A stretch of DNA of 64,000 bases, taken from Rotaria socialis (taxonomy: Eukaryota). Positions within the stretch are counted from its first letter, which is position 1. Every line of letters begins with the position of its first letter. The notes under the pieces were generated by a model. That model saw only the letters and a list, made by a program, of their open reading frames with translations, had not been told where the DNA came from and did no database searches. The stretch is from assembly GCA_905331295.1 (NCBI GenBank), contig CAJNYD010000407.1, positions 62,001 to 126,000 on the forward strand, read 5' to 3'. This document shows positions 26,215-31,720 of this stretch, piece by piece. A program made the position numbers and the translations under genes.

Positions 26215-27337
26215 AATTCTGATTCTGATCCTTTCTACTACACCGAAGAAAATTTTGAATATCTAACCCCGATAATGTTTCAGTATGGTTAGTTAAGAAC
26301 AGAGAATGAATAAATAAAGATCTGCTGCGGCATGTTGACGTAAAAACAAATCAGATAGTGCCTTATCTGTTGATATAAAAGTCTGACGAGAAACGCGAAT
26401 CAATGTCAAATGCACTAGTCGAAGCGACATCTAAAACTCATGAAAATGTTATAAAATAAACTAAAACATAAACATGATAATCAAAATATTTATTCATGTA
26501 TTTATTTTATTTTTAAGAAATGTCACTTTCAGAACAATGGTGGCGCTGTACTCTGATGAAATTTAAAAAATAACTGGGAAAAAATAACAATACAGAACTG
26601 CATGAGATCAGACAACACTTCTCTAACGTCAGATGTCGCTAAATTTATTTTCTTAGTTTAGGTCTTTTGCAAGAACTTAACACAACAAAAAAGCTACATC
26701 ATTGATATATATCCTAGATGTTAATAATTCAAGTTTTTTCACAACGATTTCTATTCTGATTGCATTATTAAATATTCTTGATTGTAGTGTTCACTATTAC
26801 TTCCAATGAGTCATGTTTATATAATGGCTGTATGGAGTAATAGACAGTTGACCAATAGAAATCAAGATTTTCTTATAATATTAATATTGTATTTTATATT
26901 TAACCAATAAGTATAATAGGTCCTTAACACTATTGGTATTTCAGAAGGATATCGATTTTTTTTCACAATATGAAACTATTTTCTACTAAAAAGAGTTTTC
27001 CAATAGTTTTCATATAGGGAGAATAGCTTTTGTCAGAATTTTGGTTGCTTAACAACGCCCATGAAAGATTTACTGTTAATGGCGATTATATCATAGGTCT
27101 ATATTTCTTTTCTTTTTGGTTTATAAGAATTAAATTTGACAAAAAATGCAAGTCACTAATCGAACAACTCGTCGTTATATCACACCACCAGTGAAAAATC
27201 AAACGGGGAATCGTTCGAACAGCAAAAAACATTCTAATACTCCAACAGTGTAAGAAAAAAAGAACATACATGCTTTATTAGCTACACAAAAGTAGTATTT
27301 TATCTCTGTCTGTAATAACTTTCTAAGAAAAAGAAAG

Positions 27338-29316
27338 ATGAATATTCTTTTGTTACCACCATTCATTGAAGATACTTACTCTATGGTTTGTTGTTTCATG
27401 TAAAGATGAGTTAATCATTCAGGTATTGGACAAAAGCATTATTCTAACTTAACATTTATAGAATCTGAAATATTTTTTTCTTGTGAATTTATGACAGTAA
27501 AAATTTAGAGAGCACTATATGCTATAAGTTGTTTCTTTAGATCTCACATTTCACCGAAGAAAATTGTAGATATACCAGTACCAAAATCAGACGAACCGTC
27601 AACATTAAAAAAGTGTGTTATTTTATTAACATCTGTTTATATTCACAATTTATGTACTGTAGACTAGTTGATCGTTTTCGTTATGAAGAACCTGAAGCTC
27701 GACCAGAGCGAGATTCGAAGAGTTTTGGTTTTTGGTGGTTACATGGTATAGGTTCAATTGAATTTGCTCTTTTTTAAATTTTTTTTCTTAAATTTTAGAT
27801 GAACTTAAAACAAATTATACGAATACTGAGGATAATGATGAAGTGAAATCAAATATTCCAGAGTTTATTGAAGTAAATTTATTTATTCCATGATAAAAAT
27901 CTACGATTAATAAATGAATGCTTTTCTCTTGTAGATATTCCCTTCGACAGATATTGATCAAGATTTAAATAAACGAGCATCGCTACTTCTCAACCAAACA
28001 TTTAGTGCTCAGTCATCTGATATAGGCCATGTGTCAAGTACAGGTATTGGTTCGACTCCGTCTACAACATTGACAGCAACAACGGCAACAAGTATTTTTC
28101 AACCGGTTGTTTATGAAAAACCAGCTAGACCAATGTTTACTCGAAACCGTACGAAAAACGAAATTATATTATGTAGAATATTTATTTATTTTTGATGAGA
28201 TTTTTTTAGTGGATTCTAACTTTAATTTTGTAAATAATGATGGAGACGATGATATTTTATATCAATGGCGTTTACGCAGACGATTAGAACAAGCACATAA
28301 TGACGAACCAATCACATTTCCAACGAGAGTAATTATCGATTACATTCTAATAGAACATATATCATAAGTCTTTTTTATAGATTAATAATCGAACTAATGT
28401 ATCTCCAGCACGTTTAATGTTACCTTCAGTACCCATCGAAATATCTACAGTACTTCCTCGTCGTACACCTTCTCCTCCAGCTACTAAGCCGTTATCACCT
28501 AAGCGAGAAGCACAACAATCAACAATCACAACTATCGAAACAGAACATGTAAAACAACTAGTTACAACTCCAATACCGATTCGACAATATTCAGAAGCAG
28601 CTACACAAACGATACAAGTATGTTGATGATTTCTGTACAGATAAACAAAAATTTTATCATTCATTCAATCATAGGATGCTTGTATTCAAACATCTTTAAC
28701 AATTGAAAATCATCTTTCTGCATCAACAGGCATTTCCAATGAAATAGATCTACGTCCAACACGTGATAATGATCATCAGTCATCTATTTGGCATCGTCCA
28801 CCACCACGTTCAAAATGTGAAATAACACGAACGTCATCACCATCACCTGTTAAACGTCATCATCATCATCATCATCATCATCAAAAATCGATGATAAATT
28901 CTTCAAATATTGTTCAATCTTCACAAGATAGTACATTAACACAAGTTACATCCATCGTGATTCATGATAGTAATAATAATAATAATAATAATACGGCTAA
29001 TCATGGTTCTATTAAAAACAATACTAGTATTGCTACGATGGATGATTTTCATGAACAACGACAAGGTATTTGTTCTAAACTAGTACAAGAGAGAGTATTG
29101 AATTTTATCTTTAGATAATGATGACGATGATGATGGCCATATTGATTATTTGAATGATGAAATATTGAATATATTAATAAGAAAACGAGACGAACTACTA
29201 GTAGCATTTCGGTGAGATTTAATAACATAGACTTTTTATATGTCAATATCGAACTATCATTTTTTTGTCTTATGTTTAGAGAAATTGAACAAAACTTGGG
29301 ACAATCGAAATTTTAA
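27338..29316 (+). CDS. PROSER3-like (proline/serine-rich protein 3) homolog; 5' exon structure uncertain
   Basis: Short conserved-looking blocks LVDRFRYEEP...ER...FWWL (27663-27745), DDDILYQWRLRRRLEQA (~28246-28296) and C-terminal NDEILNILIRKRDELL resemble PROSER3 as recalled. Reading frame is secure from 27541; I could not cleanly splice the candidate ATG at 27338. Stop at 29314-29316. Confidence 0.65.
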
Positions 29317-29588
29317 TGAATAGAAACTGTTTTGTTTTATGCTCAGTGTTATGTGTTATGTCAGATTTATATTAAATATTCTTTCCATTTATATATGAAT
29401 CTTAATAATCTGCTTTGCTTGCTATTTCATTCATAGGATTCTCATAAATTATGTGATATAAGAAGTAGGAGACTTCAATAGAGCACAATTTTTTTTGTAA
29501 ATGTCCATCCATGAATGTTACTCTTGACATTTGAAAGTAGATCAAAAGATTTAATTAAATATATCCTAATCGAAGGCCATTGTGGACA

Positions 29589-29596
29589 CTATAAAT
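29589..29596 (+). promoter_or_regulatory. TATA-like box upstream of the cytolysin D4-like gene
   Basis: CTATAAAT about 40 nt upstream of the ATG at 29632. Confidence 0.45.
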
Positions 29597-29631: not shown

Positions 29632-30097
29632 ATGAAGATACAATCTTATCTTTTGATTTTAGTCATCTTGACTACTATTTATTCGAGCAAGTTTTTGTTT
29701 ATTGAATTTTTTTGTTAATATTATTTAAATATTAATATAAATTTTAGCTGAAGGTTGGATTCGGATAAGAAATAAGGGTGGCTATGTTGCACGATTCTTT
29801 GTCGATTATCATGTGCCTAATACGGAAACAGCTTCGGGTTCTCATCTTCGATTGCCGATAAGATTATTTGAACAGACAATGTCATCGGGAAATTATCCAA
29901 TAGATCAAGCAAGAGTTATTGGCCCACCACGTAACGCAGTGTCGACTCGTATTCGTGTTGAGCGTTTTATATTCTATCCTTTTTTTGGTTGGTATTGGAA
30001 AGAAATATTTCGTGAAGAAATCCGCCCTCAAGATAGAGTTTGCTATGATATTTGGGGTACAACTATTCATCCAGCTTGGTCAAGTGTCAATTGTTAA
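29632..30097 (+). CDS. Small secreted protein (134 aa): signal peptide plus cholesterol-dependent cytolysin domain-4-like fold
   Basis: Exon 1 29632-29686 (MKIQSYLLILVILTTIYS), GC-AG intron 29687-29747, exon 2 29748-30097. Mature region GWIRIRNKGGYVARFFVDY...TRIRVERFIFYPFFGWYWKEIF...CYDIWGTTIHPAWSSVNC parallels perfringolysin D4 as recalled (GKINLDHSGAYVAQFEVAW...IRIKARECTGLAWEWWR...SIWGTTLYP). Confidence 0.85.
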
Positions 30098-31720
30098 ACA
30101 AAAGACATTAATAGAAACATTTTATGTGCACTATAGGTTTTAGTACAATGTAGCTTTATGTGGGAAGAAAGTCAAATAAAGCTTAAAGTTTATTAGTAAT
30201 ACGAAATTGAATAATTGGATTGAATGCTTGATTGAAATTGACATTTACGTGTAATACTATGCGTATGAACTGAAGCAATTTCATCAAAACAACTATTGGC
30301 GCACTAAAGAATATCAAAAGAAATAACAGGATGAGTCAAATTTATTGTTTAGTATTTAAATGTTATCGATAACAGTAGCCGCTTCATTTGATTCATCGGT
30401 TGATAATGTTCTTTTGAAATGAAAAAAGCAACCGTAATTGTGATCGTTTATATCAGAAATTGATTCATTAACTCTTTCCTATTAAGAGTTAACAGACACA
30501 AACAACTAATTGATAAAGTTGTCAATTACTACCATAGGAGAAATTTTATTTTGTAATTTGTTTCATTAAAAAGAAACAACGTTATTGATTTATTATTTAA
30601 TATATCGAAATATAGAGTAAGAAATTGACAAATATTTTATTCTGTATCATATGACGAACTTCATTATTTATTTTGTATTCTTATTCAGATCATCATGATA
30701 TTTTCTTTTACATATTGATGAAAAAAATGGATTCGATCGCTTTTATAAATTGAGCGGAAGAAAATAAATGATTGATTATAGCTATTTAACAACCCTAATC
30801 AGTTAAATATGACACATGAAATAATATCAAGATTTTATTACATCGCTAAAGGGTATCAGACACTTCAACAGTTGTAAAATAATGCTTAAAAAAGCTTTTA
30901 AAAATTGAAAATTCTTTTCTTTCCAACTATCATGCGATCATTTTATATTCTTTGTAGATTGCAAAGTTAACTTCTAAATGATTACTTTGAAAACAAAACT
31001 AATCTCTTTGTATTAGTTTGTTTCTCTATCCTCATTAAATAGTCGTTTGTTCAACCGTCGTAATTCTATAATCAATATATTTTAATCCATTTGATAACTT
31101 AATGAAATATTTATCTCTTGACTTAGACTGATTGATATGTTTTATTATTATTGAACAATATTGATTAGAATTATCTATGAGAAAATTTTCTTTCATTTTT
31201 AGTCTATTCAACTTTTGAATGCGACGATTACAATCGTTTAAGATTTGCGATAGATTAAAATTTAGTTGTGCTGAACTAATGATATAATTGTAGCCAAAAG
31301 ATCTAAAGAGCATCAAATTATGATGTATTATTATTCTATAGTTGCCTCAAAAAGAAAAGTTTGTTCTAGCTCACAAACTATGGTTGTAGCCATAACATGG
31401 GCACATTTTGAAAATCACAAGAAAGAAAAGGATAATTGTTTATGCATGCATATAAAAGTTAAATGTAGCTGTTTCAAAAATGGACAACGATGAAAATTGA
31501 GCGCTTACGCACAAAGTTTGTGAAAAACAAAAGAATTTCTTCATATACGTGAAAAATATAGAAAAAAAACAGAAGTAAAATGAACAAACATAGAGAAGAA
31601 TGGTAATATTTACAGAAAATGAAAAAAAACTTATGACCATTCAAGTGGAGAAAAATGAAAAAAACATGAAAAACTATTCAAATGTTTATAATTAGTTTTT
31701 GTCTCTATCTTTTGAAAAGC

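Follow-up and report, generated by a model that had tools for sequence, protein, structure and literature searches.

A likely secreted, stand-alone protein with a predicted cytolysin domain 4-like fold is encoded by a conserved gene of bdelloid rotifers

The window analysed in this study is a 64-kb stretch of DNA from the bdelloid rotifer Rotaria socialis. A first-pass annotation of this window described a small gene whose product was proposed to be a secreted, free-standing version of domain 4 (D4) of the cholesterol-dependent cytolysins (CDCs). The gene, its sequence motifs and its upstream neighbour are located as follows.

27146..29316, forward strand: separate, multi-exon upstream neighbour gene with a precomputed PF27936 assignment, which we take to be PROSER3-like; a marker of the conserved locus
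29525..29553, forward strand: non-coding element (TGACATTT ... AGATCA..AAGA), aligned in all five bdelloid sequences compared and likely promoter-proximal
29590..29596, forward strand: TATA box, TATAAAT
29632..30097, forward strand: spliced D4-like gene, with its ATG at 29632
29632..29686, forward strand: first coding exon (residues 1-18 and one further base), the bulk of the predicted signal peptide
29687..29747, forward strand: predicted intron of 61 nt, phase 1, with a non-canonical GC donor and an AG acceptor
29748..30097, forward strand: coding exon 2, the end of the signal peptide and the 113-aa mature, predicted CDC-D4-like beta-sandwich (Trp22-Cys134)
29777..29797, forward strand: loop L2 equivalent GGYVARF (residues 29-35), nearly invariant and aligned to SGAYVAQF of perfringolysin O
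29960..30004, forward strand: aromatic hairpin ERFIFYPFFGWYWKE (residues 90-104), standing where CDCs have the undecapeptide
30041..30043, forward strand: Cys117, first of a predicted disulfide pair, invariant in the orthologue alignment and co-occurring with the terminal cysteine
30053..30073, forward strand: loop L1 equivalent WGTTIHP, with Thr124-Ile125 at the position of Thr490-Leu491, the cholesterol recognition motif of perfringolysin O
30092..30094, forward strand: Cys134, C-terminal, second of the predicted disulfide pair
30175..30180, forward strand: candidate polyadenylation signal AATAAA

The spliced product of 134 amino acids matches, at every letter, a Rotaria socialis protein annotated as 'unnamed' (P0021). 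The codon position and phase of the intron are the same in all four distinct loci that include upstream flank (L001-L004), each of which has a GT donor. The proposed two-exon gene, its motifs and its coordinates are confirmed by the public protein and by the conserved intron position, and the TATA-like box by the invariance of TATAAAT in the five aligned sequences, all of which also have the upstream element. A rival public gene model (P0023) encodes a 123-aa protein with a different first exon and no signal peptide. This alternative first exon (P0022 and P0023) is disfavoured, given that the matching stretch of the orthologues has stops or a shifted ATG and that the leader exon is conserved. 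The originally proposed signal peptide agrees with a strongly hydrophobic N-terminus (Kyte-Doolittle nine-residue mean of 3.0 from residue 7) and with a hydrophobic leader in every aligned rotifer orthologue, while the cleavage site, which we place after Gly21, is a prediction. The mature part, Trp22-Cys134, would have a mass of 13.5 kDa and a pI of 9.6, with 15 Lys/Arg versus 10 Asp/Glu residues.

Neighbours of the gene within the window include G6PD, a homeobox gene, BUD13 and an FG-GAP (integrin-like) gene. Orthologues at 55-90% identity are present in Rotaria magnacalcarata, R. sordida, Rotaria Silwood1 and Silwood2, Adineta vaga and Didymodactylos carnosus, the last of which is the first branch within the bdelloid orthologues of our tree. 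A metagenome scan recovered 11 loci, comprising nine true orthologues (L004-L007 being one and the same sequence around the D4-like gene) and two chance pattern matches. The upstream neighbour gene is conserved in L001, L002 and L004-L007, and in L003 similarity to its end is seen at the DNA level only; L008 and L009, sequences that contain no upstream flank, share a downstream flank with each other and with the window. Pairwise dN/dS values for exon 2 (Nei-Gojobori) range from 0.23 to 0.46 in all 10 pairs. The D4-like gene is an old bdelloid orthologue, found in five Rotaria, Adineta and Didymodactylos, and it is under purifying selection. Contamination as its source is ruled out by synteny and the intron, and these two features together with the dN/dS values also indicate that the gene is not a decaying relic, in agreement with the earlier view of a domesticated gene fixed in its host.

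In four public gene models, the D4 exon is fused to this upstream neighbour (P0169 of Adineta vaga, P0170 of Rotaria Silwood1, and P0171 and P0178 of Silwood2). We reject this fusion protein as a gene-model artefact because the four junctions differ, one of them running across the promoter and the entire signal peptide, and because the neighbour ends with a last exon and a stop of its own in all four loci checked. Read-through splicing with the upstream gene may occur. Several other features of these loci deserve mention. The downstream neighbour (window:31721-32515, reverse strand) is a low-complexity gene, rich in Gly/Gln/Tyr, whose product has a likely leader, a hydrophobic tail and no Pfam match; the gene is syntenic in L001, L004-L006, L008 and L009. 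The D4 gene of L003 is directly flanked by a segment (L003:1705-2123) resembling window:14934-15341, the BUD13 region, which points to either a rearrangement or a homoeologous second copy. A long intron-free frame for an AlkB-type 2OG-Fe(II) oxygenase (PF13532) at window:63263-64000 on the reverse strand is possibly another foreign gene.

Likeness of the protein to CDC D4 is weak at the level of sequence. The Pfam profile PF17440 aligns with the spliced protein over essentially its full span (positions 2-101 of 102), as expected from the first-pass annotation, but the score of 14.5 bits (E 0.04) lies below the curated cut-off of 23 bits. This profile matches 11 of 13 orthologues at E <= 0.5, the best at 6.8e-4, and no other family is matched. 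Perfringolysin O is the top PDB sequence match (phmmer E 0.22); in this alignment, the L2, undecapeptide and L1 segments are in register. The likeness is far clearer in the predicted structure. An AlphaFold2 model of exon 2 (pLDDT 84) has eight strands, and Foldseek returned 32 matches at E <= 0.001, of which all 27 listed are CDCs (top E 2e-6, TM about 0.7); the next fold appears at 6e-3. When the model was compared with 48,161 chains, pneumolysin D4 ranked first (Z 12.9, rmsd 2.9 Å over 107 residues), followed by pneumolysin again (12.7), a Gram-negative CDC (11.9) and then a score of 8.8. Thus, the modelled protein has the D4 beta-sandwich fold, with a likeness that is beyond chance by fold, and the proposal of a stand-alone D4 fold is well supported.

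The eight-stranded beta-sandwich and the register of the GGYVA (L2-like) and WGTT..P (L1-like) motifs are common to the rotifer protein and the D4 of perfringolysin O, pneumolysin and listeriolysin O (PF17440). In other respects the two differ. The rotifer protein lacks domains 1-3 and has its own signal peptide and intron; the undecapeptide ECTGLAWEWWR is replaced by a longer and more aromatic hairpin; the leucine of the Thr-Leu motif is absent; and a cysteine pair is present that six classical CDC rows lack. A tblastn search for the pore-forming domains 1-3 (PF01289) gave no match in the 64-kb window or in rotifer loci L001-L009, although the control locus, L012, was positive. The rotifer protein therefore resembles CDC D4 by fold, yet it is not a CDC. 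The rotifer orthogroup alone has a variable insertion, about 15 residues long (window:29812-29860, pLDDT 61-66), which would sit opposite the membrane tip.

According to passages of PMC5744101, the membrane-inserting tip of a CDC is made up of the undecapeptide together with L1 and L2. The rotifer hairpin ERFIFYPFFGWYWKE shows no change in 15 of the 26 orthologue rows, and the others differ at 1-3 positions, mostly at one. It comprises strands E65-76 and E80-91 of the model, with the undecapeptide equivalent at the tip of this long hairpin. Eight of 13 residues are aromatic versus three of 10 in two CDC loops, and the interfacial hydrophobicity sum is -8.2 versus -3.2 and -3.6 for those loops. 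Such near-invariant, exposed aromatic residues, together with a stable locus, would also suit a fixed host partner, in which case the hairpin might bind a protein or glycan, or self-assemble to build a coat, mucus or adhesive layer outside the cell; entry titles indicate that some CDC D4 structures were solved with CD59 or mannose bound. We consider this explanation unlikely, given that conservation is concentrated at the end which enters membranes in CDCs and that the hairpin exceeds the compared CDC loops in hydrophobicity.

The L1 equivalent behaves differently from the hairpin. At the position of the motif leucine, the 26 orthologue rows have Ala (9), Val (7), Ile (6), Glu (3) or Asp (1), but never Leu, and Leu is still absent from all 24 rows that remain when those at 90% identity or more are dropped. 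The preceding threonine is kept in 25 rows and is Ser in one, and the WGT frame is invariant. PMC11416283 reports that Thr490 and Leu491 of perfringolysin D4 tolerate few changes. The first-pass annotation took the Thr-Ile pair as a hint of altered specificity, but a tuned sterol motif is not supported, because the second residue can change freely, with Asp and Glu among the substitutes. The same freedom argues against the classical motif serving to scavenge sterols or to recognise ergosterol. A broader version of this idea is that the protein is a sensor or carrier of cholesterol, ergosterol or a dietary sterol whose bigger hairpin compensates for the lost leucine. Sterol binding is conceivable because, according to PMC11416283, laboratory-evolved perfringolysin D4 variants without Thr-Leu still bind cholesterol if nearby hydrophobic changes compensate, and because the Ile of the window copy is a mild change. 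The retained threonine and WGT frame also fit this explanation, as does the Thr-Leu pair kept by most relatives (71 of 103 domains outside the orthogroup, a few rows of which are possibly mis-registered by the pattern). However, Asp or Glu in four of 26 rows suits a sterol-facing site badly, and the evolved variants carry aromatics or proline there rather than Ala, Asp or Glu (PMC11416283, in part). On balance, a sterol-binding role appears doubtful, and the protein, if it binds membranes, is probably not cholesterol-specific.

The absence of Thr-Leu from all 26 rows also bears on the suggestion that the protein is a decoy, occupying sterol-rich host membranes and thereby blocking bacterial cytolysins. 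Its fold is that of the toxins' binding domain, and isolated D4 fragments serve as membrane probes, but a decoy would be expected to retain the pair, and we judge this role to be highly improbable.

The two C-terminal cysteines were previously taken both as a possible disulfide and as a sign of altered specificity. Among the 103 parsed domains outside the orthogroup (one more was unparsed), both cysteines occur in 83, neither in 17 and one in 3, giving a Fisher p of 3e-16 that overstates the co-occurrence because the rows are related. A Cys117-Cys134 disulfide inherited from the family is thus probable, whereas its value as a mark of altered specificity is lost, since the pair is the family norm.

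This family is considerably wider than rotifers. When 1.84 billion representatives were searched with a profile, 56 matches were obtained at E <= 0.001, of which 54 lie outside the rotifer orthogroup and at least two look spurious (P0057 and P0091). The rotifer protein belongs to this two-cysteine family by its profile match and its C-x4-GTT-x2-P...C ending. Most family matches are stand-alone proteins of about 100-125 aa. Others carry the D4-like domain, often in tandem, on papain, metalloprotease (M10/M12), ricin-type lectin, PLAT or tectonin proteins, as well as on PASTA, oxidase and full-length CDC-family proteins. Varied enzyme and lectin carriers of this kind fit what would be expected of a portable targeting module. 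As particular examples, P0039, P0040, P0042, P0064, P0067, P0071, P0081, P0089, P0046, P0175 and P0077 have between one and five D4-like copies, on papain, M10/M12, ricin-lectin, PLAT, tectonin, PASTA, FAD-oxidase and metallophosphoesterase proteins and in the interior of a TcB-like protein; P0071 consists of four D4-like domains and nothing else.

Among the 29 proteins whose names were looked up, stand-alone members come from Didymodactylos, Parthenolecanium corni, Bemisia tabaci and Streptomyces niveiscabiei. The rotifer protein is like P0090 (Streptomyces niveiscabiei), P0099, P0111 (Parthenolecanium corni), P0128 (Bemisia tabaci) and genes on Clostridium novyi plasmids in being a stand-alone protein of this 100-125 aa class, and the model of P0099 also matches CDC D4. 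The bacterial and insect two-cysteine proteins share the C-x4-GTT-x2-P...C ending with it, and many of them have hydrophobic leaders. However, they are only about 25-35% identical to it, mostly retain Thr-Leu, and have a shorter, less aromatic loop without the variable insertion seen in rotifers.

The scale insect Parthenolecanium corni has at least seven copies (P0111, P0112, P0114, P0116, P0119, P0120 and P0044), which, like P0128 of the whitefly Bemisia tabaci, are stand-alone proteins with hydrophobic leaders. The insect proteins mostly have an intact Thr-Leu, and the three tested group with Streptomyces P0090 (97/92). Excerpts of PMC5426028 and PMC12848113 describe a whitefly 'thiol-activated cytolysin' gene, Bta13457, that responds to virus feeding, and a firebug saliva protein bears the same label in PMC12825922. 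These whitefly and firebug entries may belong to the two-cysteine family, and their labels indicate that annotators have touched such genes. Rotifers also have distant D4-like paralogues (P0041, P0047 and P0056 of Didymodactylos carnosus, and P0054 of Brachionus calyciflorus, whose model has an extra C-terminal stretch). Three of these four fall in a weak clade (82/81) with the orthogroup, hinting at a presence that predates the split of bdelloids and monogononts. In the ESM Atlas, the best-scoring named cluster (0.92; 118 aa; 112 members) has an 89% eukaryotic make-up, with Mucoromycota the commonest, and might represent a fungal branch or a donor.

Bacterial members of the family were viewed in their genomic context. 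A scan of a genome collection with P0099 recovered one locus, a full-length CDC-like gene, and eight of 401 genomes of one phylum were matched in the bacterial context scan. Full-length CDC-family proteins with a two-cysteine-type D4 and without the classical undecapeptide are encoded at L012:3732-5291 and represented by P0051, P0055, P0173 and P0176. Small hypothetical genes whose products end like D4 are found on Clostridium novyi plasmids (L013:2339-4306 and L014:1991-5700), two in L013 and, as judged by eye, up to five in L014, with no pore-forming genes nearby. At L016:1492-2378, a stand-alone D4-like gene adjoins a small, beta-rich, cysteine-containing gene whose product resembles, by eye, the domain to which D4 is joined in P0126 and P0172, and which is a possible recurring partner.

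These contexts bear on the suggestion that the rotifer protein supplies the targeting component of a bipartite pore former by recruiting an unlinked CDC-like or MACPF protein. Precedent exists in the aegerolysin/MACPF pairs. Moreover, CDC-like pairs are described in passages concerning Bacteroidota (PMC11169675), and rotifers have MPEG1-type MACPF genes (PMC10781884). Nevertheless, no gene for domains 1-3 was found in the window or the rotifer loci, and no CDC or MACPF neighbour was evident, by annotation or ORF listing, in 1.5-4 kb flanks of the bacterial stand-alone genes in L013, L014, L016 and L021/L024. The anchor subunit of the known CDC-like pair has its own domains 1-3 (PMC11169675, in part). 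A two-component role is therefore very unlikely.

Given the patchy distribution of the family, with named animal matches (29 proteins named) only in rotifers and two sternorrhynchan insects, the rotifer gene was likely acquired horizontally, as earlier suggested. The gene lies on a host chromosome among animal neighbour genes and has a host-type intron. A viral origin was rejected, there being no match in phages, viral contigs or BFVD at E <= 0.001. The phylogeny was estimated from 44 rows and 102 columns, a subset of 123 domains that were themselves chosen from 208. In this tree, a 100/99 branch splits the classical D4 domains and P0176 from the remainder, within which the rotifer group is placed, outside the classical clade. 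Forcing the rotifer proteins to group with classical D4 is rejected (AU p = 5.3e-6; 44 rows, 102 columns), with the proviso that this hypothesis came from the first-pass annotation and that the rows were picked after the larger 123-domain tree. That scenario, in which a classical CDC was stripped of domains 1-3 within an animal, is further undercut by the existence of stand-alone bacterial genes. Instead, the ancestor would have been a two-cysteine D4-like module of a type already free-standing in bacteria. Loss of domains 1-3 from a full-length two-cysteine CDC is also possible, because two full-length CDCs with a two-cysteine D4 are sister to the clade that contains the rotifers (91/91). The alternative that every animal copy, whether named or presumed, goes back to one origin is not rejected by the AU test (p = 0.10), and the deep branches are weak.

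Known systems offer partial parallels. According to portions of PMC13670155, the leafhopper proteins RdCDC3 and RdCDC9 are CDC-derived, intron-containing genes domesticated in an animal, as in rotifers, but they are full-length (490-680 aa) and nested within the classical Gram-positive CDCs; RdCDC9 has a mutated motif and has lost both cholesterol binding and toxicity. The words 'rotifer' and 'domain 4' are absent from that paper. The CDCL toxins of Bacteroidota also use CDC parts separately, although they form the mirror case, in which domains 1-3 are kept and D4 is dropped or replaced by binding domains unlike it (sections of PMC11169675 and PMC7527733). Transfer of aerolysin-type toxins to eukaryotes is likewise reported (PMC3424411). 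In the literature searched, which mostly excludes subscription papers, we found no account of a D4-only rotifer gene or of the two-cysteine family. Similarly, no cytolysin-domain gene is named in the passages and most supplements of a bdelloid infection study (PMC11258130), where the gene would probably be unannotated, and the supplement portions of PMC12220480 and PMC12510726 contain no relevant match. Standard annotation overlooks the D4-like gene because its Pfam score falls below the cut-off and because gene models frequently fuse it to its neighbour.

With these observations in mind, the interpretation we favour, to which we give about an even chance of being correct, is that this conserved and likely horizontally acquired bdelloid gene encodes a likely secreted, cationic 13-kDa protein with a predicted D4 fold and no pore domains that anchors to lipid via its enlarged aromatic hairpin and no longer via the cholesterol motif of CDCs. 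After secretion, the hairpin tip (F94, Y95, F97, F98, W100 and W102) and loops L1 and L2 would enter one leaflet, aided by the net positive charge. The protein might thereby coat or tag extracellular membranes or lipid particles, and no CDC pore would be made. The target membranes would most plausibly be those of microbes eaten or met by the rotifer. This microbe-facing role is the softest step, weakened by the stable locus and by dN/dS values well below 1, which fit a housekeeping extracellular job equally well. The same aromatic hairpin might equally bind glycans or protein, or drive the formation of oligomers.

A more far-reaching possibility, which we offer tentatively and regard as less probable, is that CDC D4 is one branch of a much larger family of disulfide-stapled, membrane-targeting, free-standing modules that animals captured more than once (in rotifers, in scale insects and whitefly, and possibly in fungi's case as well), and that in bdelloids the eight-aromatic hairpin has taken over from the Thr-Leu sterol sensor and turned the module towards a non-cholesterol microbial lipid, giving a defence protein of toxin ancestry that acts in pattern recognition or coats membranes.

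Domain 4 has been treated as part of a toxin, and engineered versions of it are in wide use as cholesterol probes. The two-cysteine mobile family appears to be undescribed, and the rotifer gene is a variant of the known D4 module. Natural D4-only proteins in animals and bacteria indicate that D4 is an independent, mobile module in its own right. Because the rotifer orthologues vary the recognition leucine and fix the hairpin, they would allow the share of each loop in membrane binding to be tested directly, and the series could supply probes for other lipids. For bdelloids themselves, the repertoire gains an old, conserved and probably foreign gene.
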